NCBI GenBank assembly: GCA_964540015.1
Contig: CAZIKW010000004.1
Span: forward strand, 629 to 38,157
Origin: an uncultured Methanosarcinales archaeon
GTDB taxonomy: Archaea; Nanobdellota; Nanobdellia; Woesearchaeales; UBA525
Direction of reading: 5' to 3'
DNA length: 37,529 bases
The notes beneath the pieces were generated by a model that did no database searches, was not told where the DNA came from, and saw only the letters and a list, made by a program, of their open reading frames with translations. Shown piece after piece: positions 12,463 to 31,199 of this stretch (position 1 is its first letter; every line of letters begins with the position of its first letter). The position numbers and the translations under genes are program-made.

Positions 12463-12900
12463 CTATCCCTGTAGGTAATCACTCGTCCTCTCTTTCCATT
12501 TTCCTCTATACGCTTTCGGCAACGCATAGTATGGTTTGAGGACCTTACGACATTCTTTTCGACCACACAGACATTTCATATCCCAGTTCGGCATGCTGTC
12601 CGTGAAGGAATAATCGATCGTGATCTCCTCGCCTTCCTTGATCGGGCGCAGCGCAGTGATGGCATTACGTCCTTTCACCGAGCAGTTCGGGTCGCACGAG
12701 TGATTGAGAAATCCGGGCAGTCCGTTTGGCGCTGGGCGGATGAATTCGTTCTTGCCCACTTGTAAAGATCGGTGGTTGCAGTGCTGCCAATCGACGGTCT
12801 TGCCGACGAAATGGAATGCGACGTCCCCCTTCTTGAGATCCTTTGTCGCGAAGATGCCTTTGCCTTCGAGACGCGAGCCTTGGACGGCAACGTTGGACAT
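12463..12900 (-). CDS. SET-domain protein lysine methyltransferase
   Basis: Motifs NHSCDPNC and EEITIDYS are present, with a post-SET-like CLCGRKEC. The start at MSNVAVQG lies 21 nt downstream of the TATA-like ATTTATAAG (12922-12930). Confidence 0.8.
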   Translation of the reverse strand: MSNVAVQGSRLEGKGIFATKDLKKGDVAFHFVGKTVDWQHCNHRSLQVGKNEFIRPAPNGLPGFLNHSCDPNCSVKGRNAITALRPIKEGEEITIDYSFTDSMPNWDMKCLCGRKECRKVLKPYYALPKAYRGKWKERTSDYLQG

Positions 12901-12978
12901 GCGACGACACCCGAACCGTCGATTTATAAGTTCAACGGTCCACAACCTTTAAGTACCATTCCGACGGCACAACCACTC

Positions 12979-14277
12979 ATGGATCTCCCCGGCAATGCGC
13001 ATGTCGAATTCTCGTACGCAGGCCAGCACCTCTCAGGCACAGTCGTGCAGGTGCGTGATGGGAACGTCACTATCAAGCTCGTGACCGGCTACAACGTCAT
13101 CCTGCCCGTCACCGAGCTTAAAGACTTGAAGACCACGCCAAAAGAGCGCCCCGAGCATCACGCGCACGCGCCGCACCAGGACGCGACCCTCCCCGCAGTC
13201 ACCATCATCCACACGGGCGGCACGATCGCAAGCAGAGTAGATTACTCAACCGGCGCGGTCGTCGCACAGTTCGACCCGGCAGAGCTCCTCGCGATGTTCC
13301 CGGACGTGACGAAGATCGCGCACGTGACGAGCCATTTGCTGCGCAACATGCAGTCAGACGATATGCGCTTTGCGCACCACAATCTGATCGCGAAAGCGGT
13401 GCTCGAAGAGATCACGCGTGACGCGCGCGGCGTCATCGTCACGCAGGGGACGGATACGCTCCACTACACCGCTGCTGCACTCGCATTCATCCTCGAAGGC
13501 GTGAACATCCCCGTCGTTGTCGTCGGTAGCCAACGCTCTTCAGACCGCGGTTCCTCTGACGCAAACGCGAATCTCATGGGCGCGCTGCGCTTCATCACGC
13601 AAGCGAATATCCCCGGCGTCTTCGTCGCGATGCATCACGGTTCAGGCGACAGCGACATCGCGATCATCGAAGGCGTGCGCGCGCGAAAGAACCACACGTC
13701 GCGCCGCGATGCATTCAGCAGCGTCAATGCGCCGATTATCGCGAAAGTCACTGACGGTCACACGGAGATCGTGAGCGAAGCGCGTGTCGCAGAGTTGCGC
13801 GCGAATGCATCGCAGCACCCACGCGTCCTACCCCTCGATGAGACGCTCAAAATCGGCATCTGGTACGTGCATCCTCAGTCATACGCGGATGAGCTCCTCG
13901 TCTATGACCACTATGATGGGTTACTCATTGCAGGCACCGGTTTAGGTCACGCGCCGATCACAGTGATCGACGATGAAACATCAGAACACGAACGCATCCG
14001 CACACACCTCGCGCGATTGGCGAAGAGAATCCCCGTCGTCATGGCGCCGCAGACAATCTGGGGACGCGTGAACATGGATGTCTACTCGCCCGGCCGCACC
14101 TTGCAAGAGATGGGTGTCTTAGGTCAAGGCTGCGACACACACATAGAAACCGCATTCATGAAGCTCGCGTGGCTCCTGTCGCAGCACAAGGAAGACGCCA
14201 AGAAACTCTACAACACCGATCTTCGAGGAGAAATCTCTAAACGCAGTCCGCTAGAAGACTCGCACAAAGGCGGCTAA
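12979..14277 (+). CDS. gatD: Glutamyl-tRNA(Gln) amidotransferase subunit D
   Basis: The asparaginase-type motif IIHTGGTIAS is present, and the length of about 432 aa is typical of GatD. The start at MDLPGNAHV lies 23 nt downstream of the TATA-like CTTTAAGTA (12947-12955). Confidence 0.9.
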   Translation: MDLPGNAHVEFSYAGQHLSGTVVQVRDGNVTIKLVTGYNVILPVTELKDLKTTPKERPEHHAHAPHQDATLPAVTIIHTGGTIASRVDYSTGAVVAQFDPAELLAMFPDVTKIAHVTSHLLRNMQSDDMRFAHHNLIAKAVLEEITRDARGVIVTQGTDTLHYTAAALAFILEGVNIPVVVVGSQRSSDRGSSDANANLMGALRFITQANIPGVFVAMHHGSGDSDIAIIEGVRARKNHTSRRDAFSSVNAPIIAKVTDGHTEIVSEARVAELRANASQHPRVLPLDETLKIGIWYVHPQSYADELLVYDHYDGLLIAGTGLGHAPITVIDDETSEHERIRTHLARLAKRIPVVMAPQTIWGRVNMDVYSPGRTLQEMGVLGQGCDTHIETAFMKLAWLLSQHKEDAKKLYNTDLRGEISKRSPLEDSHKGG

Positions 14278-16115: not shown

Positions 16116-17171
16116 TTAGATGCATGCTCCGTTGAAGCACACCGATGTCGTGTTCGTCACGCAACTCGTGTTCGTGAGCGTTGGTGTCACGCCGCTGCAG
16201 AAACGCTCCGTGAGCGTCGTGTTGCTCACGCACGTGTCCAAGTACGTGAACGGCGTGCCGCTCGCCGAACCCGTCACGTTGCCGAAGACCGTGAAGACGA
16301 TACCGCCATCAGAGTCACTGCACGAGTTCGTGTAGCAGCCGCTGGGGTCGAAAACGGAGCAAGTCCTGCTACAACCAAGCGTTCCACCGCTGTATCCCTG
16401 CGAAGAGCAGGTCTCGCCTTCAAGATCGGATCCATCGCAGACTTCCGTTCCTTCCGTCACGTTATTGCCGCAGGTCTGGTTGGTGCACAACGCAGTCTCG
16501 TAGCCGCTGCAGTCATTCTTGCAGCTGAGCGTCCCTCCGCTGTAGCCAAACGAGCCGCACGTCAGGTTGTTGAGGCTCGTGCCATCACAAACCTCGCTAC
16601 CTTCAGTCACATTATTGCCGCACACCGCCAGAGGTACGTAGTCGACGACCGCGTACACCTGCGCGACACGACCGCCGCCGTTCGGGTTCAGGCCGTACAT
16701 GCCCGCTTCCAGCGCATCGACCGTAGTGACCGTCCACGCGCTACTCGTCGCAGGGTTCGTCGTGTAGAGATGGCTGACCGCCGTCCAGTTCGCGGTTCCG
16801 CACATCTGCGTACCCGTCTGGTAATCTATGCCGCCAGAGCGTGTCATCGCGCCGATGCATGCGTTCGACGCGCTATTGTGTTGCATCAAGTAGTAGTAGA
16901 TGCGCACGGAGTTGATGGATTCAGTTGACAAACCAGTGTTGTCAAACGTGAACGTCTCCTTCCCCGTGCCGGTCGCGAAGAGATAGTCCGACGTATTGAC
17001 TGGAGTCTCCTCAACACAACTCCAGTGATTTCCCGCGCCGGAACACCCTTGCTGCGACCATGCGGTCCGGGCGCCGCTCGCATCAGGATGTATAGTCAGC
17101 GTTGCTGCCAGCGCTGTTGGTATCGCAAGCGCCAACATGAATAAGAGAACTAGTGCGTTCATAAGTCGCAT
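16116..17171 (-). CDS. Secreted surface protein with tandem CGNNVTEG-x-EVCDG cysteine-rich repeats
   Basis: The start at MRLMNALVLLFMLALAIPTALA (signal peptide) has a GAGGTG SD upstream. Two repeats of about 50 aa resemble the CGNG..E.GE.CD cysteine-rich repeat class. Many NxS/T sequons are present. Confidence 0.65.
   Translation of the reverse strand: MRLMNALVLLFMLALAIPTALAATLTIHPDASGARTAWSQQGCSGAGNHWSCVEETPVNTSDYLFATGTGKETFTFDNTGLSTESINSVRIYYYLMQHNSASNACIGAMTRSGGIDYQTGTQMCGTANWTAVSHLYTTNPATSSAWTVTTVDALEAGMYGLNPNGGGRVAQVYAVVDYVPLAVCGNNVTEGSEVCDGTSLNNLTCGSFGYSGGTLSCKNDCSGYETALCTNQTCGNNVTEGTEVCDGSDLEGETCSSQGYSGGTLGCSRTCSVFDPSGCYTNSCSDSDGGIVFTVFGNVTGSASGTPFTYLDTCVSNTTLTERFCSGVTPTLTNTSCVTNTTSVCFNGACI
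16335..16622 (-). repeat. Two tandem ~150-nt coding repeats (Cys-rich module)
   Basis: Residues 202-247 and 252-297 of the ORF are near-duplicates (CGNNVTEGSEVCDGTSLNNLTCGSFGYSGGTLSC versus CGNNVTEGTEVCDGSDLEGETCSSQGYSGGTLGC). Confidence 0.7.
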
Positions 17172-17260
17172 TCTTACACCTCTTGGAGAACTACCATCCC
17201 CAGTACGACCACAGGGGAACGACATTTTAAAAAAGTATGGTGCCCGTGTCCAGTGCTCCG

Positions 17261-18280
17261 TTATCGCGCAGCAGTGGAAACTCGTTCATATTCTCGAGCA
17301 TATATCTGCGCCAATGCCGCATCCTGAATGACCAATAAGTTCTCATCATTACGCGTGTTCGCGTTCGCCGTCGGGTTGAAGCTGCCCGTCACGACCGTCT
17401 TCCCATCGATAATGAACACCTTGTGATGCATCGTGCCAGAGTTACCATCCTTGAAAACAGGAATACCAACCGCTTTCAAAGAATCATATTCGGACCATTG
17501 ATCAGACTGCCTGCGCTCAACGACACCTTCCACAACGACACCTCGATCATACGCGCGCACGAGCGCATCGCCCACCGCATCGGACGTGAACGAGAACGTC
17601 ATGAACCGAATAGAGGCATTCGCCCCATCCAACGCGGCTATCAGAACCGTCTCGCATCCTTCCGCAGGGGCGAAGCAGACATCGACAGGAATACCGGAGA
17701 GCTCTACGAGCGGCGCATCGACACGCGCCTTCTTTGCGCCGCCGCCGTGTCCGCGCGCATCAAGGATATCCCACTCGCGTGCGTATGCTGCCGCGAGCGT
17801 ATGCGAGCGGAACACCACCAAGTGCTCATCATTCTTTGTTTGCGCGTTCACGGTCGGGTTCATCGAACCCGTCATCACGATCTCGCCATCGAGCACACAG
17901 AACTTATGATGCATCAGGCCAGCGGAATCGACCGTCGAGAATCCATGACCCATCGATTCCTCGGCATTCTCTTCGAACACCAATACATCGGCGTCTTTCG
18001 CATCGAGCGCTGCGATGGTCCGCGGGAGATCGAGCTCATAGTACGCGCAGCGGATGTCCGTCGCATTCGCGAACAAGGACAACATCGTCGCTTCGCAATC
18101 TGCCGTTCGACAGAAGACCGCATCGACAGAACCCTGTTCCTTCACTACGCCATACGTCGGCGCATCGAGCAAAAAGACGCGGATCGCCGCGAACAGCGCT
18201 CCAAGCACGATGAGCATCAGGATGATGATAGAGATGATGACGATCGGTTTGGGGCCATCGCTCTCAAAGCGTTGTTTCAT
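17261..18280 (-). CDS. Phospholipase D superfamily protein (two HKD motifs), N-terminal membrane anchor
   Basis: HHKFCVLDGEIVMTGSMNPT and HHKVFIIDGKTVVTGSFNPT both fit HxKx4Dx6GSxN. The TM helix is IVIISIIILMLIVLGALFAAI. A TATA-like CTTTAAGT (18302-18309) lies 22 nt upstream of the start. Confidence 0.8.
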   Translation of the reverse strand: MKQRFESDGPKPIVIISIIILMLIVLGALFAAIRVFLLDAPTYGVVKEQGSVDAVFCRTADCEATMLSLFANATDIRCAYYELDLPRTIAALDAKDADVLVFEENAEESMGHGFSTVDSAGLMHHKFCVLDGEIVMTGSMNPTVNAQTKNDEHLVVFRSHTLAAAYAREWDILDARGHGGGAKKARVDAPLVELSGIPVDVCFAPAEGCETVLIAALDGANASIRFMTFSFTSDAVGDALVRAYDRGVVVEGVVERRQSDQWSEYDSLKAVGIPVFKDGNSGTMHHKVFIIDGKTVVTGSFNPTANANTRNDENLLVIQDAALAQIYAREYERVSTAAR

Positions 18281-18336: not shown

Positions 18337-20067
18337 TCACTCACCGCCTTGCGCCAAACGCACGAGCGTCTGCAGGCTATTGTGTTGCGCGAGCGAGCAA
18401 TCGCCTTTCGCCGATTGCGCTTGCAATGAGCGGAACCACGTGCCATCATTTATCGTCGACATGCGATCGGAAAGCGCGCAGATGGTAGGCGCATCGCCAG
18501 CCTCATAGCGCCCTTCGCTACGCGAAAGCGCGATACGCGCGTAATCATAATCCTCAGGCAACAGCGTTGGCGACGGTGGGATCGGAGAGATCGTGCCGCG
18601 ATCGTACGTGGTGACGGGTGTCCGCTCGAACCTACCATCCGTGAACACGCGCTGGGCAACGCCGATCGGCACGAACACATTGGTGCCCTCGGGAATCCTA
18701 GCGCCGGTCGGGATATGCGGATTGCGAGCGCGGAAACCATCCGCATCGCCGATGAGCCGCTCGAAATCGAGACCGGTGATTGGACGATGACCCGAAGCGT
18801 AATGCACGACGAAGCGTTCCGCCTGGAACGTCGGGTACTTGTACACCTCTCGTTCACGGAATGCAGGCACCAAATCACTACAGGTTCGCGCATCGCCCGT
18901 GTACGGTCCACGCGGAGCGCATCTGCCGGTATCCGTACGCACCGCCTTCGTTCCTGCGGCTTCTCGCACCGTCGTGTAGAGCGCATCACGGTCGATAGCG
19001 TTACGCAATCCCATGAAGCGCGGGACGTAGCGCGCGCTCTCTTTTTTGAATGTCGTACGGTTCGTCGGCATCTGCCAGCCCTCGGTAACGATCCATGAGA
19101 ACGCATCGGCCGCTTCTGTGCCGGGCGTATTCTCGTCGGCGTCAGGCATCACCAGATATTCCAGCGCCGCAAGCTGCTGCGCCTGCCAATCATCAAGCGC
19201 AGTCACGCGAGAGGGGGCTTTCCAATCCGCATGCGCTATCTGTTTCGAACGCATCTGCGCGAGATTCCCAGGGCCCGTATGATACGCGCTCATGCCGGTG
19301 AGGAAGCCGCCCGTGTGATAGACGTACGAACGCAAAAGGCCAAATGCAGCTTCTGCCGCGAGAATCGGATGTAAGCTCTCGTTCACATTCGTCCTGTTGT
19401 TCCCTCGACCTTTGGGCAAGATGAGACCCGCATTGCGCGCATTATCGCGATTGAGTTGAAACGGCCCTTCACAAGCGGCGGAACTGACGACGGAAGGGGT
19501 GAACAGGGATTCCTGAATAGCGATCAACCACGTATCGCGATCAAGCCCGTAGCGTAACCCGATCGATTCGAGATACGGAATGAATGGCGATGCTCGATCG
19601 AGCGCTTTGGGGATCTGATCCGCGCTTCCGATACGCCACGAGAGATCGCGCACCGACCTGAGCGCTGGCGGCAAGAACTGCCGATACGCTTTCGTCGCGA
19701 CCGTATCCAAATACTGGAGACCTTTAGTTCGCGCGCGCTGCCACCGCGCATATTCCACATCACTCATCTCGATCGCACTCACCGGACGTAAACGATCGTC
19801 GGGGAAAATAACGACCTTCCCGCGCGGCACCGCAGTCCACAAGTATCGCTCCAAACGGACTTCATCCGCCGCTTTAAGCGTCTCCGTGATGGGTGTGAGA
19901 AAGAGCTCGTGCTTGAGCGTCAGATCGATACGGGATGTTCCGTTCAATCGCGCGTCAGAGGTTTTATCGGGCGCGGGAGGTCGTACGGGACTCGCGGCGT
20001 CAGACGGCCGCGCAGCAGCAAGCGAGAGAGCGCATAAGCCCGCGGCGATCATCCCACGCAACCGCAT
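18337..20067 (-). CDS. Secreted protein with an SLT/GH23 lytic transglycosylase domain
   Basis: The signal peptide is MRLRGMIAAGLCALSLAAARPSDA. IAIQESLFTPSVVSSAACEGPFQL matches the ES...S.AGA.GLMQL motif, and AYHTGPGN matches AYNAGPG. A TATA-like sequence at 20091-20098 lies 23 nt upstream of the start. Confidence 0.75.
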   Translation of the reverse strand: MRLRGMIAAGLCALSLAAARPSDAASPVRPPAPDKTSDARLNGTSRIDLTLKHELFLTPITETLKAADEVRLERYLWTAVPRGKVVIFPDDRLRPVSAIEMSDVEYARWQRARTKGLQYLDTVATKAYRQFLPPALRSVRDLSWRIGSADQIPKALDRASPFIPYLESIGLRYGLDRDTWLIAIQESLFTPSVVSSAACEGPFQLNRDNARNAGLILPKGRGNNRTNVNESLHPILAAEAAFGLLRSYVYHTGGFLTGMSAYHTGPGNLAQMRSKQIAHADWKAPSRVTALDDWQAQQLAALEYLVMPDADENTPGTEAADAFSWIVTEGWQMPTNRTTFKKESARYVPRFMGLRNAIDRDALYTTVREAAGTKAVRTDTGRCAPRGPYTGDARTCSDLVPAFREREVYKYPTFQAERFVVHYASGHRPITGLDFERLIGDADGFRARNPHIPTGARIPEGTNVFVPIGVAQRVFTDGRFERTPVTTYDRGTISPIPPSPTLLPEDYDYARIALSRSEGRYEAGDAPTICALSDRMSTINDGTWFRSLQAQSAKGDCSLAQHNSLQTLVRLAQGGE

Positions 20068-20256
20068 ATCCTACTGCCCCCCGTTCGCATACTTAAAGCG
20101 TTCCGCCCGGTATCTGTCGCATACACCGACGGATGACTACGTGCGGACAGATCATCTTCGTCAAAGAGGAGTGACGATTTTTTACATACCTGTAACCATT
20201 TGAAAATGGTGTCAGAATCAGAACACATAAATATCAGTTTTCGAACGCACACGTAT

Positions 20257-20353
20257 CGTGGTCGAAAAAACGGCCGCGATCTAACTCACCTCTTTTCCCG
20301 GGAGGGACCCGTCAGGCGCAAGTCGGGCGGGACCTTCCAGGGCCTCTTTTTCT
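20257..20353 (+). ncRNA. Candidate structured small RNA (unclassified)
   Basis: A TATA-like CATAAATAT at 20225-20233 lies 24 nt upstream. Hairpin CGUGGUCG-A6-CGGCCGCG spans 20257-20278. Helix 20297-20306 pairs with 20333-20342, enclosing a CCCG/CGGG stem. A CCUCUUUUUCUC tract follows. The G-U pairs form only on the plus strand. Confidence 0.25.
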
Positions 20354-20363
20354 CAAAGCAGCT

Positions 20364-22148
20364 TCAACGCTTCCGTCGAACAACCTTCACAGCCCGAACC
20401 GTCGGCCACAACAGCAATGCGAGACCAAGAGCGAATGCTGCGCCGTAACAGAAGAAAATGATAGGCGCAGCCGCATCGATAGGCAATCGCCACGACACAT
20501 CATTCTCGGGAAAGTACATGTCAAGCGTAGCTAGTTCAAGCGCTTCTTCAGCGAACGTGAGCGCACTGTACGGCGCATCATCGCGCAACCAATCCGCATA
20601 GCGCCAATAGCTGTATGCGAGGATCGGGAATGAACCGCCCGCCTGGCGCGAGGCGAGGACACGCTCACCTGCATCGATCTTCTCCGTGACGAGAGCATCG
20701 ACACGGCTCGGATCAACGGCGATAGCGCTCGCTATCAGATTCGCATGCGCCGTCGCTTTCGCCGCATGCAGAATGCACAGCACGGGTTCGCTGTCACTGC
20801 GGTACGCGAGCGAGAGCTCTTCTTCAGCACTCTCCACAGCCGCAGGAGCGTACAACCGCACATAACTCAAGCGCTCATCAGCCTCGGCGATCTTCGCGAG
20901 GCATGCACGACGGAGTTGGTCGTCATCGACACGTAAGGGCGCTCCCGGCATACCAAATAACGCACTCCAGCTTCCCGCGCTCCTGATGCGCTCGTCTGCG
21001 TACGCGATATCTGCGCTACTATTCTTCTCATCCACATCGACATCTTTCATCGTCTCGCGCGCCTCGCTGATACGCTCACGCACGATGGCGCTCACCTCGA
21101 GGTCGCCGACTGTGAGAATCGGCGTCTGTTCCGTCGTATTCTCGACTTCGATGATATGCGCACGCACCTCACGCGCGAGCGCGCGTCGCTCTTGCAAGGA
21201 CATATCTTTCACAATCAACGCATTCAATTCGATGTCTTGGCTAAAGCACAGCGATGCACGCGGATATCCCGCATCAAGGGGTGTCGCTTCGATGCGGCGG
21301 GTGAAATTATTGGGGTCGTCGTACATCAGATCCCGTCGCCCCACTTCTGCACGCAAGAACGCGTTACGGGCGCAGATCTCTGCGCTGATGTCACGCATGC
21401 GGTTCGCGTATTCGGGTGGTGCGACCGGTTCCGCAAGCGCAGGCGATTGCTCGCGATGCGTGAAGAGCGCGAGCGCCTCATCGAGCGTACCGACCGCGAT
21501 GACCGTGACCTCTTTACTCGATAACGCGGCGACAGGTCCACGCTCGAGCGGTCCGATACCTGGCTGCGGAACGCTCGCTAGCGGCGCAGTCCCATTGACG
21601 ACCGTCTCATTCTCCGGTCCGCTCAAAAGCGGCACGAGCACCGTCGTGATACCAGCGCGTCGTGCGCCATCGATCTTCGCACGCACGCCAGAGATCGGGC
21701 CGATGACACCGCCGCTATTGATTGTGCCGGTCATCGCGATGTTCTCATCGAGCGTTCGGCGGTCGAGGACGGCTGCGGTGAGTACAGCGATCGCTCCGCC
21801 CGCGCTCGGTCCACCCACTACTGCGGTGTTCGCGCGGATCGTATAGCGGAAATCGTACTTTGAGCAATCGATATCCAAGTGATCGCATGCGACCTGATTG
21901 GCGTACCGCGTGCTCGCTTGCGTGTCCAGACGCGTGAGCGGGAAGCTATCGATGAAGATCGCGCCTGTCCCCGGCACGACATCAAGACGCACGGTCGCCG
22001 TACCACCGCGTTCCATCCCGTCACCAGTCTCAGACACCGTGAGTAGCGTGAGCTCTCCTGAGCGCGTGCTCTCCGTCATGAACTGAACGCCGACAGCGAT
22101 AAACAGAAGCACAATACCTGCGATGAGAAGTATGCGTCGGCGATCCAT
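20364..22148 (-). CDS. Membrane-anchored archaeal S16 (Lon-type) serine protease with a long C-terminal helical extension and C-terminal TM
   Basis: VGGPSAGGAIAVLTAAVL (catalytic Ser) and GVRAKIDGARRAGITTVLVP (Lys) match the Lon proteolytic domain. TM helices are present at the N- and C-termini. The ATG directly abuts the bud32 stop. Confidence 0.8.
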   Translation of the reverse strand: MDRRRILLIAGIVLLFIAVGVQFMTESTRSGELTLLTVSETGDGMERGGTATVRLDVVPGTGAIFIDSFPLTRLDTQASTRYANQVACDHLDIDCSKYDFRYTIRANTAVVGGPSAGGAIAVLTAAVLDRRTLDENIAMTGTINSGGVIGPISGVRAKIDGARRAGITTVLVPLLSGPENETVVNGTAPLASVPQPGIGPLERGPVAALSSKEVTVIAVGTLDEALALFTHREQSPALAEPVAPPEYANRMRDISAEICARNAFLRAEVGRRDLMYDDPNNFTRRIEATPLDAGYPRASLCFSQDIELNALIVKDMSLQERRALAREVRAHIIEVENTTEQTPILTVGDLEVSAIVRERISEARETMKDVDVDEKNSSADIAYADERIRSAGSWSALFGMPGAPLRVDDDQLRRACLAKIAEADERLSYVRLYAPAAVESAEEELSLAYRSDSEPVLCILHAAKATAHANLIASAIAVDPSRVDALVTEKIDAGERVLASRQAGGSFPILAYSYWRYADWLRDDAPYSALTFAEEALELATLDMYFPENDVSWRLPIDAAAPIIFFCYGAAFALGLALLLWPTVRAVKVVRRKR

Positions 22149-22745
22149 TCAGGTCACCTTGTTGCGGCCGCGGCGCTCGACTGCGCGCAGACGTTCGAGT
22201 ACGGCCGTTGCATCTTTGTTCTTTTGGCGGTAACCGGCGGTGAATGAGCGGAACGCTTGCGTCGCGACCTTGTGGTGCTTACTCGCGAGCGCTTGCTTGA
22301 GCACATGGATATCGACCGCGCGGTCCTCCAAGCGGACGCTATGAAACGAGAGGCCGAAATCGATGACGGTGATGGCACCGCTCTTGACGTCGTGCATGAT
22401 GTTGCTTGTCGTCAGATCACCGTGGATGATACCGGCACCGTGGAGTTTCGCGATCATCTTGCCGACTTCCGCAAGAAGCTTCGGATCTTTGTCAAGTGTT
22501 TCTTTGAGGGGCACACCAGAAGCGAGCGCGAGTTCGAGCGTGGAATCATCGATCGTCTTGACATCGGGGACCGCAACACCAGCCCGCTTCGCTTTCTCGA
22601 GATTGCGAGCTTCCGCTCGCGTGCGTTGCGTACGCAGGAGCTTGTCGAGCTCAGGATGACGATACGTTTTCGCGGGGCGGGATTTACGAACGCCAGTCTT
22701 GGTCCGCTCCACGATCGCTTCCGCTCCTTGCGCGAGAATAGACAT
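22149..22745 (-). CDS. bud32: KEOPS complex kinase/ATPase Bud32
   Basis: It begins LAQGAEAIVER, contains GIIHGDLTTSNIM, and has the typical length of 198 aa. A TATA-like GCTTTAAAAGG lies about 25 nt upstream. Confidence 0.85.
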   Translation of the reverse strand: MSILAQGAEAIVERTKTGVRKSRPAKTYRHPELDKLLRTQRTRAEARNLEKAKRAGVAVPDVKTIDDSTLELALASGVPLKETLDKDPKLLAEVGKMIAKLHGAGIIHGDLTTSNIMHDVKSGAITVIDFGLSFHSVRLEDRAVDIHVLKQALASKHHKVATQAFRSFTAGYRQKNKDATAVLERLRAVERRGRNKVT

Positions 22746-23137: not shown

Positions 23138-23434
23138 TTATTTCTTTCGCAATCTCGTCATATGCCCGCACGTCAAGCACGCATACACGGTGTGCGTCGG
23201 TCGAACCCGAACACGCAATGTCTTCGTCGTGAACCACGCGTAGCATTTGCGGCAATGCAGGCGGTTGTACGCACCTAAAGAGATACGCTTGCGAGAGGCC
23301 AGTTTGTGCGCCAATGTCGCGTAGCGCTGCGCACGGTCCGGGTGAGCCACAGCAGCATCGGCAGCCAAGCGCATCAGCTTCTCGACTTCCGAGCGCGTCT
23401 CAGAGGCAGCTTGGCGTTTGGAGCGAGGGGCCAT
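23138..23434 (-). CDS. rnp4: RNase P protein component 4 (Rpr2/RPP21 family)
   Basis: This is the last 98 aa of the 474-aa ORF: MAPRSKRQAASE...HCRKCYAWF...YACLTCGHMTRLRKK. It has the CxxC...CxxC zinc ribbon typical of Rpr2. Confidence 0.8.
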   Translation of the reverse strand: MAPRSKRQAASETRSEVEKLMRLAADAAVAHPDRAQRYATLAHKLASRKRISLGAYNRLHCRKCYAWFTTKTLRVRVRPTHTVYACLTCGHMTRLRKK

Positions 23435-23512
23435 TATCGACGGGACGAGGATATGAGATTCATAATCCTTCCCACACAACCAATATAAATGGGCAGGGCG
23501 CTCGAATCTAGC

Positions 23513-24928
23513 ATGGGACTCATCGACCGCTTCAATGAGCGCGTACGCGACATCGGCAAGTTCGGCGCGACCGTACGAAAATCGCTCGAGCCGACCACAC
23601 CGGTGCTCACGCTGGGCGAGGACCGCTCCTCGTGGGCGCAGAGCGCGGTATCGCACCTGAAGCTCGACTGGGAATTCGCGGAGTTCAGCGATCGCGTCGC
23701 CCAACACGTGCAGGATGCGGGCAGGGCGCTTGAGCACTTGACAAGCGAAAAGCGCATCCAGGAACTGCCGGAGCGCGCGCGGACCGTGAATCAGATCCAC
23801 GGTCAAGAATATGCGCAAAAAGCGCGCAAGGTCCTGATCGCGACGAAGTTCGACGATCTGTACCGCTACGACGAGGATCACCAGCGGTTCATGCAAGCGA
23901 TGCAGGAGTTCCGCGACGGCTCCAATCGCAACGCGACGGCGCTGCGTGAACATATGGGCACGGAGCTCGATGCGGTACAGACCGCCCTGCAGAAACTCGA
24001 GGATGAGACTATCCGTTTCGCGCAGTTGCTTGAGACCAAGCATTTCGTGCATGTGAAACAGCTCAAAGAAGCGCACGACGCGCTCGTCACCCTCAACGAA
24101 CGCCAAGCGAAAGAGGAAGAGCTCGCCGCATCGCTGCGCACCGATAAGGAGAAAGCCGTTGAGCGCATCGGAACGCTCGAAGGTCACATCAAGGAGCAAG
24201 AAGACAAGATCCGTAACGATGACGCGCGTGAGGCGCTCACTCAGCTCACGCGGATCGAAGAGCAGCTGGAGAAACTGATCGCGCCTGTGCAGACCGCTGC
24301 ACGTGACGCACGCAAGTACTACAAACGATTCTCCGATATCGCCGCACCGAAGGGGACGATGCAATTGCTTGAATCGCTCGAACGGGATGCGTCGCGCGAA
24401 CTGATGGAGAACCAGTCGAACGTCGCGGATACGTTCACGGCGATTTCCTCGCAGATTGCCGAAGAGAATCGCGCAAACACGAAACCGCTTTCCGCGAAAC
24501 TCGAGCGTGTGGCTTCCGAGATCGAATCGACCGCATCGAAAGTAGCAGCGCTCGTCCCACAACAGCGAGAGTTACGCCGCGGCATCATGCGCGATGTGGC
24601 AGCGCTCGCCGCGTACGACCATCGCCAGTTCCTGTTCACAGCCAAACGCGATGCGAGCGCTATCGACGCGAAACTCACGTTCCTTGAGGCTGAACTCGAT
24701 CCCGCGAAGCGCATCACGCACGAGCGCGCGCTCAAGGATGCGGCGATCAACCTCGGCGCGGTCATCGAAGGAGAACCAGTACCGACGCCTCACGATGCGT
24801 CCTCGAACGTTCCGCAGACAACCGCGGAAGCGGACGAAGAGATTGAACACGCCGAAGCATCGCTCAAAAAAGCGAACGAGATGCTCGGCGGGAATGCGAA
24901 GCCCAAGCGCAAGAAGGGCAAACGATGA
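23513..24928 (+). CDS. Long coiled-coil protein with a basic tail, hypothetical
   Basis: The start at MGLIDRF lies 22 nt downstream of the TATA AATATAAAT (23482-23490). The track start at 23489 lies inside that TATA box. The composition is heptad-rich in E/K/L/A. Confidence 0.65.
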   Translation: MGLIDRFNERVRDIGKFGATVRKSLEPTTPVLTLGEDRSSWAQSAVSHLKLDWEFAEFSDRVAQHVQDAGRALEHLTSEKRIQELPERARTVNQIHGQEYAQKARKVLIATKFDDLYRYDEDHQRFMQAMQEFRDGSNRNATALREHMGTELDAVQTALQKLEDETIRFAQLLETKHFVHVKQLKEAHDALVTLNERQAKEEELAASLRTDKEKAVERIGTLEGHIKEQEDKIRNDDAREALTQLTRIEEQLEKLIAPVQTAARDARKYYKRFSDIAAPKGTMQLLESLERDASRELMENQSNVADTFTAISSQIAEENRANTKPLSAKLERVASEIESTASKVAALVPQQRELRRGIMRDVAALAAYDHRQFLFTAKRDASAIDAKLTFLEAELDPAKRITHERALKDAAINLGAVIEGEPVPTPHDASSNVPQTTAEADEEIEHAEASLKKANEMLGGNAKPKRKKGKR

Positions 24929-27688: not shown

Positions 27689-30055
27689 GTGGTGACAAGA
27701 TTATCGACTGATGAACGTTCCTGGGCGCAGGAGCACTGGACAGCTGCGAACTATCTTGCAGCATCGATGATCTATCTCAAGGATAACGAGCTTCTTGAGA
27801 AACCGCTCAAAGGAGAGCATATCAAAGATGCACTCCTGGGCCACTGGGGCACGTGCCCGGGTCTGAACATCCTGCAGACACATCTCTCCCTTCTCGCAAA
27901 GAAGCGGTCGCAATCCACGCTGCTTATCACCGGGCCAGGCCACGGATTCGCATCCTTCCTCGCGAATTCGTTCATCGACGGATCGCTTGAACCCTACTAT
28001 CCTGAACTCACAGCTGACAACGCAGGCACGCGCAATCTCATCAAAGCATTCTGCTGGCCTGGCGGTTTCCCAAGCCATCTCAATCCTGGCGTTCCCGGTT
28101 GTATCCACGAAGGCGGCGAACTCGGCTACGCGCTCGGCGTCGCATTCGGCGCAGCATTCGACAACCCAGATCTCATGGTCGCATGCATCGTCGGTGACGG
28201 TGAAGCGGAAACGGGACCGACCGCTGCAGCGTGGCACAGCACCAAATGGCTCGACCCGAAAAAAGACGGTGCAGTGCTCCCCATCATCCATCTCAATCGC
28301 TACAAGATCAGCAATCCCACGATCTACTCAACGATGAGCAGACCGGAACTCACCGCACTCTTCACGGGGTACGGCTACGCGCCGAAGTTCGTCGGACCTG
28401 ATCACGACAAGCTCCACGCGGCGATCTTCTGGGCGCATGACCGCATCCGCGCGATCCAGCGTGCAGCACGCAGCGGCAAACCGAACGCGCGACCCCGCTG
28501 GCCAGTCATCATCTTCGAGAGCCCGAAAGGAATGACGGGTATCTCGAAACTCGGCAAGGATACGATCACCGGCACCTGGCGCAGCCATCAAGTCCCGGCG
28601 AAAGACGCGAAAGCGAATCCCGAGAGCCTCGCAGCGCTCGAGCATTGGCTGCGTTCGTACAAGCCCGAACATATTTTCACTGCTGGTTGGGTCACTCGCC
28701 TCCGACGACATCTGCCTGAAGGGCCGCTGCGCATCGCAAGCAACCCGCACGCTATCGGCGGCAACCTGCGTACAGCGCTCGAATTACCGGCACCGGAAGA
28801 GTTCCAAGTCGCCATCCATCATCGCGGACACGACCGCGCCGGCAGCACGCCGGTGTTCGGGCAATTCCTCACGTGGACCGTCCGCATGAACAAGAATAAT
28901 TTCCGCATCTACAGCCCGGATGAACTCGCAAGCAACAAGCTCGATGCAGTGCTCGCAGCCACAAGTCGCGCGTACACGTGGCCCCATGAGAAGACCGACA
29001 ACACCCTGGCACCTGGCGGCCAAGTGATGGAGATCCTCAGCGAGCACACGCTCCAAGCATGGATGCAAGGCTATCTCCTCACCGGAAGGCACGGATTGTT
29101 CCCGAGTTACGAAGCGTTCCTCCCAATCGTCGACAGCATGGTGAGCCAATACCTCAAATTCATCGAGATGAGCAGAGCGTACCCATGGCGCACGCCGGTG
29201 TCGAGCATGAACTATCTCTTGACCTCCGTCTGCTGGCGGCAAGACCACAATGGATTCTCGCATCAGAACCCAGGGTTCATCAACACCCTCCTGAACAAAG
29301 CGAAAGAGGAACAGCTCGTGCGCATCTACTTGCCCGCGGACGCGAACATGACACTCACGGTCGCGGATCACTGCTTGCGCAGCGTGAATCGCGTGAACGT
29401 GATCGTCGCGGACAAGCAACCCAACCGCCAATGGCTTTCCTACCAAGAAGCGCGCGACCAAGCGCGCACCGGTGCGGGCATCTGGCCGTTCGCGAGCGTC
29501 GACGACCCTGATGTGATCTTGTGCGGCATCGGCGACTACCAAGTGCAAGAATGCCTCGCGGCGATCATGCTCTTACGCCACATCGCACCAGAAGTCAAGG
29601 TGCGCTTCGTGAACGTGAGTGAGCTGAATGTCTTAGGTCCAGCACCGTTCTATCCCAACGGCATGGATGAAGGCGCGTTCCAGCAGCTCTTCCCCGTCGA
29701 CCGCACGACACTTATCAGCTTCCACGGCTACCCAGGCGCGGTCAAGCAACTCCTGTTCGATCGCCCCGCCAATAGCCGCTTCCACGTGTACGGCTATATC
29801 GAGAAAGGGACGACGACGACACCGTTCGATATGCTCGTGCGTAACAATGTCTCACGTTACGACCTCGCTCGTCGATGCATCGAACATGCCGCGCGCCGCA
29901 ACCATGAACTGGCGCCGCACGCGCACCTGCTCATCGCAAGGATCGAGAAGGATCTCCTTGAGCACCAGGCGTACATCCTCGAGCACGGACGCGATCCACC
30001 CGAGATCGCGGAATGGACCTGGCACGACATCGCGCACGAGAAAACCACGCGGTGA
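27689..30055 (+). CDS. xfp: Xylulose-5-phosphate/fructose-6-phosphate phosphoketolase
   Basis: Motifs GHWGTCPGLN, EGGELGY and GDGEAETGP (TPP binding) are present. Length is 788 aa. It uses a GTG start preceded by an in-frame TGA. Confidence 0.93.
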   Translation: MVTRLSTDERSWAQEHWTAANYLAASMIYLKDNELLEKPLKGEHIKDALLGHWGTCPGLNILQTHLSLLAKKRSQSTLLITGPGHGFASFLANSFIDGSLEPYYPELTADNAGTRNLIKAFCWPGGFPSHLNPGVPGCIHEGGELGYALGVAFGAAFDNPDLMVACIVGDGEAETGPTAAAWHSTKWLDPKKDGAVLPIIHLNRYKISNPTIYSTMSRPELTALFTGYGYAPKFVGPDHDKLHAAIFWAHDRIRAIQRAARSGKPNARPRWPVIIFESPKGMTGISKLGKDTITGTWRSHQVPAKDAKANPESLAALEHWLRSYKPEHIFTAGWVTRLRRHLPEGPLRIASNPHAIGGNLRTALELPAPEEFQVAIHHRGHDRAGSTPVFGQFLTWTVRMNKNNFRIYSPDELASNKLDAVLAATSRAYTWPHEKTDNTLAPGGQVMEILSEHTLQAWMQGYLLTGRHGLFPSYEAFLPIVDSMVSQYLKFIEMSRAYPWRTPVSSMNYLLTSVCWRQDHNGFSHQNPGFINTLLNKAKEEQLVRIYLPADANMTLTVADHCLRSVNRVNVIVADKQPNRQWLSYQEARDQARTGAGIWPFASVDDPDVILCGIGDYQVQECLAAIMLLRHIAPEVKVRFVNVSELNVLGPAPFYPNGMDEGAFQQLFPVDRTTLISFHGYPGAVKQLLFDRPANSRFHVYGYIEKGTTTTPFDMLVRNNVSRYDLARRCIEHAARRNHELAPHAHLLIARIEKDLLEHQAYILEHGRDPPEIAEWTWHDIAHEKTTR

Positions 30056-30059
30056 ATCG

Positions 30060-31199
30060 ATGGATCTTTTGCTCATCGACGCGGGCAGCTCCAGCGTCAA
30101 GTTCCGCCTCTTTGAGAAGGATCGTATCTTGCTTGACGGCCAAGTAGACCGTGTCGGGCCGCAAGCGCGCATGCGCGTGCACGGCGAGGAATATCCGCTC
30201 GATGCTCGCGATCCACCGGCCGCGCTCGCGCGCATCATGGAACTCACCGCAGCAGCGCTGCAAGGACGAGCCCCCGGCGCGGTAGCGCACCGCATCGTGC
30301 ATGGCGGCGACCGTGACCGTGCCGCAATCATCGACACGAAGGCACTCGCTGACCTTTCAGGATATAGCGAGCTCGCGCCATTACACCAAGGCGTGCAACT
30401 CGCGCTCGTGCGCGATACGATGCGGGCCTACCCGGATGCGCTACAGATTGGTTGCTTCGATACTGCGTTTCACGCACATATGCCGGCTGTCGCGCGCGAA
30501 TATGCCATACCGCGCGCGCTCTCGAAGGAATTCCGCATCAAGCGCTATGGCTACCACGGGCTCGCGCACGAGGCGATGCTCATCGAAGCGGCCGCGCTCA
30601 TGGGCCGGCGGCCTTATGACTTGCGCATCATCACGCTGCAATTAGGAAATGGCGTGAGCGCGTGCGCGATAGCTGACCGCCATTCGCTGGACACCACGAT
30701 GGGCTTCACGCCGCTTGAGGGCTTCCCGATGGGAACGCGCTCCGGCTCCATCGATCCCGCGATCATCCCCTACCTGTGCGAGCGGCTCCACGCGACGCCG
30801 CAGGAGGTCTTGCGTATCCTCGAGCACGATAGCGGCATGCTCGGCGTCGGCGGTTCGCATGATGTGCGCGACCTCCTCGCGCTCGAGCACAAGGACCAGA
30901 ACGCGAAGCTCGCGCTCGACCTTCTCGCGTACCAATTGCGAAAGGCGATCGGCGCAGCGTGGGCGGTGCTCGGGCGCGTGGACGCGGTCGTGATGGCGGG
31001 CGGTATTTCGCAAAGTCCTGTGATGCGACGCAAGATCCTGCAGGGACTAGAAGGGTTCGGCATCGCGCTTGATACGCATGCGGGGACCCATGCCGCACCA
31101 CTGCAGATCTCCACAGGCGACGTACCGGTGTTCGTGGTGGACGGGGACGAGCTGGAAGTCATGCGCCGGGAAGCCCATCGTCTGCTTGCGACCAGGTAG
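30060..31199 (+). CDS. ackA: Acetate kinase
   Basis: Motifs IDAGSSSVKF, HRIVHGG, FDTAFH, RYGYHGL, QLGNGVS and DTTMGFTPLEGFPMGTRSGSIDP are present. It begins 4 nt after the xfp stop. Confidence 0.9.
   Translation: MDLLLIDAGSSSVKFRLFEKDRILLDGQVDRVGPQARMRVHGEEYPLDARDPPAALARIMELTAAALQGRAPGAVAHRIVHGGDRDRAAIIDTKALADLSGYSELAPLHQGVQLALVRDTMRAYPDALQIGCFDTAFHAHMPAVAREYAIPRALSKEFRIKRYGYHGLAHEAMLIEAAALMGRRPYDLRIITLQLGNGVSACAIADRHSLDTTMGFTPLEGFPMGTRSGSIDPAIIPYLCERLHATPQEVLRILEHDSGMLGVGGSHDVRDLLALEHKDQNAKLALDLLAYQLRKAIGAAWAVLGRVDAVVMAGGISQSPVMRRKILQGLEGFGIALDTHAGTHAAPLQISTGDVPVFVVDGDELEVMRREAHRLLATR

Follow-up and report, generated by a model that had tools for sequence, protein, structure and literature searches.

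A predicted secreted, MltD-like lytic transglycosylase of apparent bacterial descent in a Woesearchaeota-like archaeal genome

The SLT gene product and its predicted structure

A stretch of 37,529 nucleotides (nt) of archaeal DNA (contig CAZIKW010000004.1, positions 629 to 38,157; hereafter the window) contains a gene which an original prediction had singled out as encoding a secreted murein lytic transglycosylase. Here we describe this gene, called the SLT gene after its catalytic domain, together with its protein product, its history and its likely function. It lies on the minus strand behind the genes for a Bud32/RIO-type kinase and for a Lon-type S16 protease domain without an ATPase (Lon_C), and ahead of a nuclease gene of the PLD family (coordinates in Table 1).

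Residues 181-283 of the product match the Pfam SLT model (PF01464) at 36.2 bits (E = 5e-9), where the gathering score is 21.3. The same model is matched by 12 of 30 relatives, and no NCBIfam model matches the window protein. Motif I reads IAIQ-E186-S187-LF. Motif II has the variant form S195-SAACEGPF-Q204-L (canonical G-L-M-Q), and motif III the variant form A-Y262-H-T-G265-P-G-N268 (canonical A-Y-N-x-G-x-G); the Q, Y, G and N positions of these two motifs are at least 85% conserved among the relatives. E186 falls on the catalytic glutamate of lytic transglycosylase C (MltC; IESSFNP) in a weak match from a PDB sequence search (E = 0.12), is aligned by the family profile to the ES motif of a phage SLT domain, and is kept in at least 90% of the 30 relatives. 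The catalytic domain is the best-conserved portion of the protein, and E186, S195, Q204, Y262 and AYHTGPGN are kept throughout the clade. Judged by sequence and model, the protein has the defining features of a family-1 lytic transglycosylase (glycoside hydrolase family 23, GH23/SLT) that we tested. The domain originally proposed is thus confirmed above the curated Pfam cut-off, and the catalytic motifs quoted with it were all located, with E186 aligned to the catalytic glutamate of solved lytic transglycosylases.

The N-terminus has the layout of a signal peptide: MRLRG, a hydrophobic core of 14 residues, and RPSDAAS, a pattern conserved in the relatives. It contains no hydrophobic stretch of 19 residues, i.e., it is too short for a membrane anchor. 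A lipobox ([LVI][ASTVI][GAS]C) was sought at the end of the hydrophobic core and not found; C12 is not conserved in one relative (P0004). Because of this signal-peptide-like N-terminus and of two conserved cysteine pairs (C383/C396 and C530/C557), we infer that the protein is exported by way of a Sec-type signal peptide, in agreement with the signal peptide already proposed.

What does the remainder of the protein look like? With an alignment of five sequences, AlphaFold2 (AF2) gave an unusable model (mean predicted local distance difference test score, pLDDT, of 44.6), which was replaced by one built from a family alignment of 30 members (pLDDT 88.7; predicted template modelling score, pTM, 0.87). 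In this model, a signal helix is followed by an alpha/beta domain (residues 25-131), the helical SLT domain (approximately 151-300) with a helical extension, a long beta-hairpin (364-409), a small module and a C-terminal domain (471-576) made of two short strands and then a helical bundle. The best Foldseek match in the PDB is MltD of Pseudomonas aeruginosa (E = 1.5e-6, TMt 0.61, approximately 330 aligned columns), and MltE, MltF, MltC and Slt come after it; the phi6 lysin and g-type lysozyme stand lower in the list (E > 0.05). The matches in BFVD, a viral collection, are phage SLT/LT_GEWL proteins with weaker scores. The predicted fold is thus the expected lysozyme-like alpha-helical one, with the lytic transglycosylases as the closest structures and g-type lysozyme only further down. 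The flanking regions had been reported to match nothing recognisable. This does not hold, for they are conserved across the whole family, including its bacterial homologues, and are confidently folded in the model.

One of the flanking elements, the beta-alpha-alpha-beta module at residues 413-470, is well conserved, with the motif F-x3-NPH-I-P ... IPEG-x-V-F-V-P-x-G; its pLDDT rises from 70-86 in the model built on the shallow alignment to more than 90 in that built on the deeper one. Pfam detects no LysM domain in the window protein or in any of the 30 relatives, and no LysM structure came up when the PDB was searched with a profile of residues 410-474. In view of these two null results we dropped a LysM identity at the sequence level and describe the module as LysM-like by its modelled topology only.

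Archaeal setting and history of the gene

Among the window proteins, GatE and SMC_prok_A score above their NCBIfam equivalog cut-offs and CDC48 above its subfamily cut-off. Other archaeal genes in the window encode GatD, a Nip7-PUA protein, the diphthamide synthase Dph6, the Bud32/RIO kinase, two TrmB regulators and a SET-domain protein; an Rpr2 domain reaches 24.4 bits, under the Pfam cut-off of 29.3. By family matches, then, the gene content is uniformly archaeal, as had been claimed for the informational genes (with Rpr2 below its cut-off). ARAGORN finds no tRNA gene in the 37.5-kb window, and Rfam at gathering thresholds finds no family in it.

The named neighbours of the window GatE (42-52% identity) are all metagenome-assembled genomes (MAGs) of Candidatus Woesearchaeota, Nanoarchaeota or Nanoarchaeia, and none belongs to the Methanosarcinales; one further neighbour is the unclassified "archaeon D22." A relative, MAG GCA_964396935.1 (contig CAYNGK010000003.1; L001/L004 in our numbering of related loci), is titled "uncultured Methanosarcinales archaeon." It has its gene order in common with the window, and its Cdc48 is 91% identical. 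On the basis of the GatE neighbours and of the synteny of Lon_C and PLD with low-GC contigs, we rejected a Methanosarcinales identity in favour of a Woesearchaeota-like DPANN archaeon, to which the single marker GatE would assign the window genome. The label of GCA_964396935.1 is probably wrong.

Close relatives of the SLT protein are few. Among 5.8 billion clustered proteins there are only four, at 95, 86, 47 and 47% identity, and an alignment search of the named database returned the same four and no others. An exhaustive profile search of 1.84 billion representatives gave 451 matches at E ≤ 1e-3, 9 of them at E ≤ 1e-30. Besides the four close relatives, approximately ten distant ones match over the full length. 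The relatives are 517-660 amino acids long, and there is no giant protein among the 150 best profile matches. In every relative with a readable contig, the order of the locus is Bud32/RIO - Lon_C - [SLT] - (small open reading frame, ORF, of approximately 150 amino acids) - PLD - HAD. The SLT gene occupies the same site in nine further loci, down to approximately 27% protein identity, and the loci that bear it come from independent NCBI, ENA, JGI and Logan assemblies.

The genes of this neighbourhood have diverged to different degrees. Between the window and L001, the identity is 91% for Cdc48, 71% for PLD, 64-67% for Lon_C and 47% for SLT; between the window and deeper loci, it is 54-59% for Bud32 and 27-29% for SLT. 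The SLT gene is the fastest-evolving of its neighbourhood. Its ratio of nonsynonymous to synonymous substitution rates (dN/dS) is 0.081 in comparison with the 95% relative and 0.058 in comparison with the 86% relative, inside the range of the neighbouring genes, and the gene is under strong purifying selection.

Was the SLT gene always part of this locus? A scan of metagenome contigs guided by the PLD gene returned 80 loci. Lon_C adjoins PLD in 19 of them, and no SLT-family gene is present in any of the 80 except a locus identical to the contig of L012. The SLT-free locus L033 carries Nip7, Bud32, Lon_C and PLD in order. In SLT-free loci, the gap between Lon_C and PLD is often 230-800 nt, which leaves no room for an SLT gene. 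A small zinc-ribbon ORF is common in this gap, and it is homologous to the small ORF found in SLT-bearing loci (hmmsearch E = 4e-14 and 2e-7; hhalign probability 94%). Since the SLT-free loci have the order Bud32 - Lon_C - small ORF - PLD, theirs appears to be the older layout, and the SLT gene would have been inserted later. The G+C content is 0.50-0.64 in SLT-bearing loci and 0.26-0.51 in SLT-free loci with Lon_C and PLD. We infer a single insertion, after Lon_C, in one high-GC sublineage; the small ORF would later have been lost in the subgroup of the window while the SLT gene was retained.

The small ORF itself, which most relatives have ahead of PLD and after either Lon_C or SLT, encodes a predicted cytoplasmic protein with the motif TIPE...QPQTyfsL.RS and often an N-terminal CxxC...CxxC zinc ribbon (examples in Table 1).

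The nearest non-archaeal relatives are "hypothetical proteins" of approximately 550-660 amino acids in MAGs of Rhodothermales/Bacteroidota (e.g., GAB5518245.1, NNE47664.1 and MEM6335056.1), which are homologous over their full length. Invariant positions common to the archaeal and bacterial families occur in every domain (E186, S344, Y347, H451, D506), and the AYHTGPG motif is common to both as well. The bacterial proteins differ from the window protein in that they are only 19-25% identical to it, have V-E-T-F in motif I in place of Q-E-S-L-F, and have a beta-alpha-alpha-beta module interrupted by a long insertion; many also have N-terminal tails and a transmembrane anchor. Their genes stand in bacterial contexts with no Lon_C or PLD neighbours. 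In one case, the context is of Bacteroidota type, with a SusC-like TonB receptor, a type IX secretion system tail, YbeY and RsgA. More distant relatives are canonical SLT proteins of the MltD type with two to six Pfam LysM repeats.

In a bootstrapped neighbor-joining (NJ) tree, the bacterial family forms a clade of its own (100%), and jointly with the archaeal family it stands apart from other SLT proteins (94%). Archaeal monophyly receives 29%, though an NJ tree of BLOSUM distances shows it. The search for a donor lineage, proposed along with the original prediction, thus yields a sister family in Rhodothermales/Bacteroidota. Because the sequence tree leaves archaeal monophyly at this value, our argument that the gene was acquired once draws mainly on the common insertion site. 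The direction of transfer, from bacteria to archaea, is suggested by the bacterial outgroups and by the lack of murein in archaea, none of which makes it to our knowledge.

The gene had been thought to be possibly a recent acquisition from a bacterium or a phage. Bacterial ancestry is borne out, and the other two parts are not. Against a recent date, the G+C content of the SLT ORF (0.58-0.59, against 0.57 for the window) is the same as that of its neighbours, dN/dS is low (0.06-0.08), and the chromosomal site of the gene is unchanged in relatives with an SLT protein at approximately 27% identity. As to a phage, the PHROG matches are marginal (E of about 1e-4), whereas cellular bacterial homologues align over the full length. 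We rejected a phage origin, since the PHROG and BFVD matches are weak and limited to the domain.

Upstream signals and neighbouring genes

Within the 296 nt upstream of the SLT gene, some blocks do not vary between loci with SLT proteins at 47% identity. A TATA-like box, a perfect palindrome and an inverted repeat in the predicted 5' leader are found there (Table 1). The palindrome, ACCATTTTCAAATGGT, occurs once in the window, where 0.03 occurrences are expected by chance. In each of the nine other loci with an SLT gene it precedes that gene, and in three SLT-free loci (L029, L033 and L038) it lies between Lon_C and the small-ORF/PLD genes; the SLT gene therefore appears to sit behind a pre-existing promoter. 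The usual spacing between TATA box and start in archaea puts the transcription start roughly at the palindrome, and the promoter of the SLT unit is probably regulated by some transcription factor. On the downstream side, 56 nt separate the SLT stop codon from the PLD gene, with no obvious terminator or AT-rich box in this spacer, and in deeper loci the SLT stop overlaps the start of the small ORF. The SLT and PLD genes are likely to be co-transcribed.

A further element of this region is a GC-rich block of 65 nt at 20280-20344 (minus strand), directly 3' of the Lon_C stop. The block occurs once in the window and is near-identical in the window, L011 and L001, where the flanking proteins are only approximately 65% identical; its core is also present in L002, there inside the called end of Lon_C. 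A structured RNA, or one of a known family, was considered for this block and rejected, with no Rfam match and a fold no better than that of shuffled sequence.

Table 1. Features of the SLT gene, its product and its surroundings; small-ORF positions are those in the locus named
Feature	Position	Strand	Basis or remark
SLT-domain (MltD-like) coding sequence	18337..20067	minus	576 amino acids, ATG start, stop codon included
Signal-peptide-like N-terminus, residues 1-24	19996..20067	minus	predicted from sequence features and conservation
N-terminal alpha/beta domain, residues 25-131, W109 conserved in the family	19675..19995	minus	AF2 pLDDT approximately 90
SLT catalytic domain, residues 151-300	19168..19617	minus	Pfam part 181-283 = nt 19219-19527
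E186 codon GAA, predicted catalytic acid/base	19510..19512	minus	alignment to MltC Glu and conservation
Residues 301-412: helical extension (invariant S344, Y347) and long beta-hairpin with conserved C383/C396	18832..19167	minus	
Residues 413-470: small beta-alpha-alpha-beta module, LysM-like topology	18658..18831	minus	model topology
Residues 471-576: C-terminal domain, conserved C530/C557 and D506/Y509	18340..18657	minus	model and conservation
TATA-like box TATTTAT	20227..20233	minus	invariant in four loci (alignment)
Perfect palindrome ACCATTTTCAAATGGT	20195..20210	minus	centre 27.5 nt downstream of TATA centre; candidate operator at transcription start
Inverted repeat TCGTCA-N8-TGACGA in predicted 5' leader	20158..20177	minus	same relative position in L001, L002, L005, L008, L011, L014
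PLD-family tandem Nuc-type nuclease, membrane-anchored (predicted)	17261..18280	minus	Pfam PLDc_2 in two stretches; transmembrane segment
Lon-type S16 protease domain without ATPase (Lon_C)	20364..22148	minus	N- and C-terminal transmembrane segments flank the domain
Bud32/RIO-type kinase	22149..22745	minus	part of the older Bud32 - Lon_C - (small ORF) - PLD order
Small ORF, L005	11809-12240		example
Small ORF, L006	4836-5288		example
Small ORF, L008	3138-3596		example
Small ORF, L013	2015-2491		example
Small ORF, L014	3486-3953		further example
Small ORF, L054	5031-5711		further example
Small ORF, L063	5498-5944		further example, among others

Both neighbouring enzymes retain their catalytic motifs. 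In the PLD nuclease, the HKD motifs are intact at H124 and H285, and its PDB matches are led by Salmonella Nuc (1byr; E = 4e-19), with Zucchini/PLD6 and NucT following; in Lon_C, the Ser-Lys dyad S115/K158 is intact. The tandem Nuc-type nuclease has at least 499 relatives in metagenome contigs, often adjoining the Lon_C protease and Bud32 (loci L015-L094), and PLD - Lon_C - Bud32 looks like a conserved cluster in contigs that are presumably from DPANN archaea. We considered the SLT and PLD genes as a purpose-built operon and gave this idea less weight, since the order Lon_C - small ORF - PLD predates the insertion of SLT.

Several other features of the window deserve mention. Between HAD and PLD, and in the window only, lies a gene for a secreted Cys-rich repeat protein of 369 amino acids (16116-17225, minus strand), with repeats such as CGNNVTEGxEVCDG...GYSGGTL.C; HAD abuts PLD in L001, L002 and L012. 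This protein has no Pfam or NCBIfam match and weak PHROG matches only. Genes for phosphoketolase (XFP) and acetate kinase are adjacent at 27689-31199 (plus strand), which makes a fermentative pair of bacterial type within an archaeal window. As listed, the acetate kinase ORF starts before xfp ends, and the Pfam domain in it begins at residue 134, so that its true start is probably later. The minus-strand ORF at 23138-24562, which has the Rpr2 domain in its C-terminal part only, is mostly spurious; the conserved gene there is at 23489-24928 (plus strand) and is 50% identical to its L001 counterpart. Finally, the listed GatD ORF (start 12772; region 12463-14277) overlaps the SET-domain gene by approximately 170 nt. 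Its Asparaginase domain begins at residue 143 and its relatives have approximately 431 amino acids, which places the true start probably near 12980.

Function and comparison with known systems

We consider it rather probable that the SLT gene encodes a secreted and catalytically competent family-1 lytic transglycosylase of the MltD-like kind, that it descends from bacteria, and that it was inserted a single time behind an existing promoter and has been held by purifying selection since. The most likely function of such a protein would be the extracellular cleavage of bacterial peptidoglycan, as suggested by homology, conserved catalytic machinery, predicted export and purifying selection. The protein would be exported from the archaeal cell. 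E186 would protonate the beta-1,4 bond between N-acetylmuramic acid (MurNAc) and N-acetylglucosamine (GlcNAc) of bacterial peptidoglycan and then activate the C6 hydroxyl, with the formation of 1,6-anhydro-MurNAc ends, and bacterial walls would be opened or digested, whether they belong to a bacterial host, to prey or to wall debris used as food. An endogenous archaeal wall is an unlikely substrate, because the 1,6-anhydro reaction depends on a hydroxyl at C6, and the N-acetyl-talosaminuronic acid in pseudomurein has none there.

Several points weigh against this reading. The assignment to DPANN comes from one marker, GatE, and one related MAG is labelled Methanosarcinales; archaeal monophyly of the SLT family, as said, has a bootstrap value of 29%. 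In two papers (PMC8204110, PMC11537232), the hosts of cultivated DPANN archaea are given as archaea, not bacteria. No recognised peptidoglycan-binding domain was found in the protein by Pfam or PDB profile searches. Besides lytic transglycosylases, GH23 also includes chitinases and goose-type lysozymes, so that the sequence fixes neither the substrate nor the choice between lytic and hydrolytic cleavage.

The same fold and chemistry might act on a GlcNAc-containing glycan other than murein, such as chitin, chito-oligosaccharides, or a glycan on the surface of an archaeal host or of the archaeon's own cell. The presence of chitinases in GH23 and the absence of a detected murein-specific binding domain agree with this, as do the archaeal hosts just mentioned. 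According to the titles of PDB entries, crystals of MltD and MltE bind chito-oligosaccharides, and a survey of archaeal hydrolases cautions that LysM-type modules can bind chitin (PLoS Biol 2025, PMC12352652). However, all non-archaeal homologues, close and distant, are bacterial cell-wall-type proteins, the active-site motifs of murein lytic transglycosylases are retained, and pseudomurein is closed to the 1,6-anhydro mechanism by established chemistry. We regard another glycan as an unlikely substrate. If the substrate should nevertheless prove not to be murein, this would caution against taking "GH23 in an archaeon" as evidence for predation.

It is tempting to hypothesize that the SLT protein, the Nuc-type nuclease and the Lon-type protease form a regulated module which opens bacteria, so that a nucleotide-dependent DPANN cell could harvest their DNA and protein. 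Each of the three is predicted to lie outside the cytoplasm and retains its catalytic motifs; the short SLT-PLD spacer (56 nt) holds no terminator or promoter, elsewhere the SLT stop overlaps the next gene, and the promoter and palindromes upstream are conserved. A "vampiristic" model has been published for Woesearchaeota (PMC9723730). Yet Lon_C, the small ORF and PLD were neighbours before SLT arrived and still are so in many SLT-free relatives, the linkage can be a by-product of the insertion site, and the small ORF was apparently lost in the subgroup of the window while SLT stayed. Because the protease and nuclease genes adjoined long before the arrival of SLT, functional coupling is not our main conclusion, and we think this module improbable, on a par with the substitution of another glycan for murein. 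The same doubtful standing applies to the bolder proposal that SLT is the first gene of an operator-controlled unit with the nuclease, beside the protease, and that the whole would be a switchable kit of wall opening and digestion for parasitising or preying on bacteria. Such a kit, if real, would imply a host relationship across domains between a DPANN archaeon and a bacterium. We know of no DPANN archaeon for which a bacterial host has been demonstrated so far.

The enzymatic activity might instead have been lost or left unused, with the protein serving as a glycan-binding adhesin or as a structural component of the surface. Its large N- and C-terminal non-catalytic domains are conserved, and it evolves fastest in its neighbourhood, as surface proteins often do; but the clade-wide retention of the catalytic residues, the superior conservation of the catalytic domain and a dN/dS of 0.06-0.08 make this quite improbable. 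An artefact, whether through a chimeric contig, wrong binning or the very recent insertion of bacterial or phage DNA, might be suspected from the otherwise bacterial and phage distribution of SLT and from the doubtful label of one related MAG, but it can be dismissed almost entirely, and with it the chimera named as a danger to the original prediction, for the same gene stands between the same archaeal genes in NCBI, ENA, JGI and Logan assemblies, the G+C content is uniform, purifying selection is strong and PHROG matches are marginal.

The idea that such an archaeon attaches to, preys on or competes with bacteria is not new, having been published for Woesearchaeota (PMC8204110, PMC9723730). 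Large extracellular SLT/GH23 proteins of Woesearchaeota and Pacearchaeota, up to approximately 3000 amino acids long (fam00969), have been proposed to bind or degrade bacterial cell walls (Castelle 2021, PMC8204110), and predation was inferred from GH23 in five Woesearchaeota MAGs (Vigneron 2022, PMC9723730). Earlier reports of SLT/GH23 in DPANN archaea are those of Rinke 2013 and Castelle 2015, as they are cited by later papers. The window protein has in common with the fam00969 giants the domain, the predicted extracellular location, the proposed role and, to judge by GatE, probably the superphylum; it differs in its length of 576 amino acids (517-660 in its relatives), in a comparison made with fam00969 by description only. 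Thus far, attack or feeding on bacteria by DPANN archaea rests on the annotation of very large SLT proteins that are hard to express. The window protein offers a better experimental handle, with its smaller size, a single predicted catalytic residue (E186), a confident model and a mapped insertion site, promoter and palindromes; the conserved promoter and palindromes let expression be followed. It is therefore a compact and tractable candidate for a first biochemical test of the hypothesis that DPANN archaea act against bacteria.

Among enzymes of known structure, MltD of P. aeruginosa (8RHE/8RHF/8RHI), a membrane-bound lytic transglycosylase of family 1D, is the closest: both proteins have an SLT domain, an aligned catalytic glutamate and extra modules after the catalytic core. 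In contrast to MltD, the window protein is encoded by an archaeon, has neither a lipobox nor Pfam-detectable LysM repeats, reads AYHTGPGN in motif III where the canonical form is AYNAGxG, and carries an additional N-terminal alpha/beta domain and a C-terminal helical bundle; the sequence identity is approximately 14%.

Archaeal modular peptidoglycan hydrolases have been shown to kill bacteria, the tested examples being M23 peptidases with PG_binding_1, and their distribution is patchy and enriched on plasmids (PLoS Biol 2025, PMC12352652). The window protein resembles them in being archaeal, predicted to be secreted, horizontally acquired and, as we propose, aimed at bacterial peptidoglycan. 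The definition used in that survey would miss it, because it has no recognised wall-binding domain. Unlike the surveyed hydrolases, with their patchy and plasmid-biased occurrence, the SLT gene is chromosomal, syntenic and vertically inherited in its clade, so that a bacterial wall-degrading gene appears here to have become a stable part of an archaeal chromosome.

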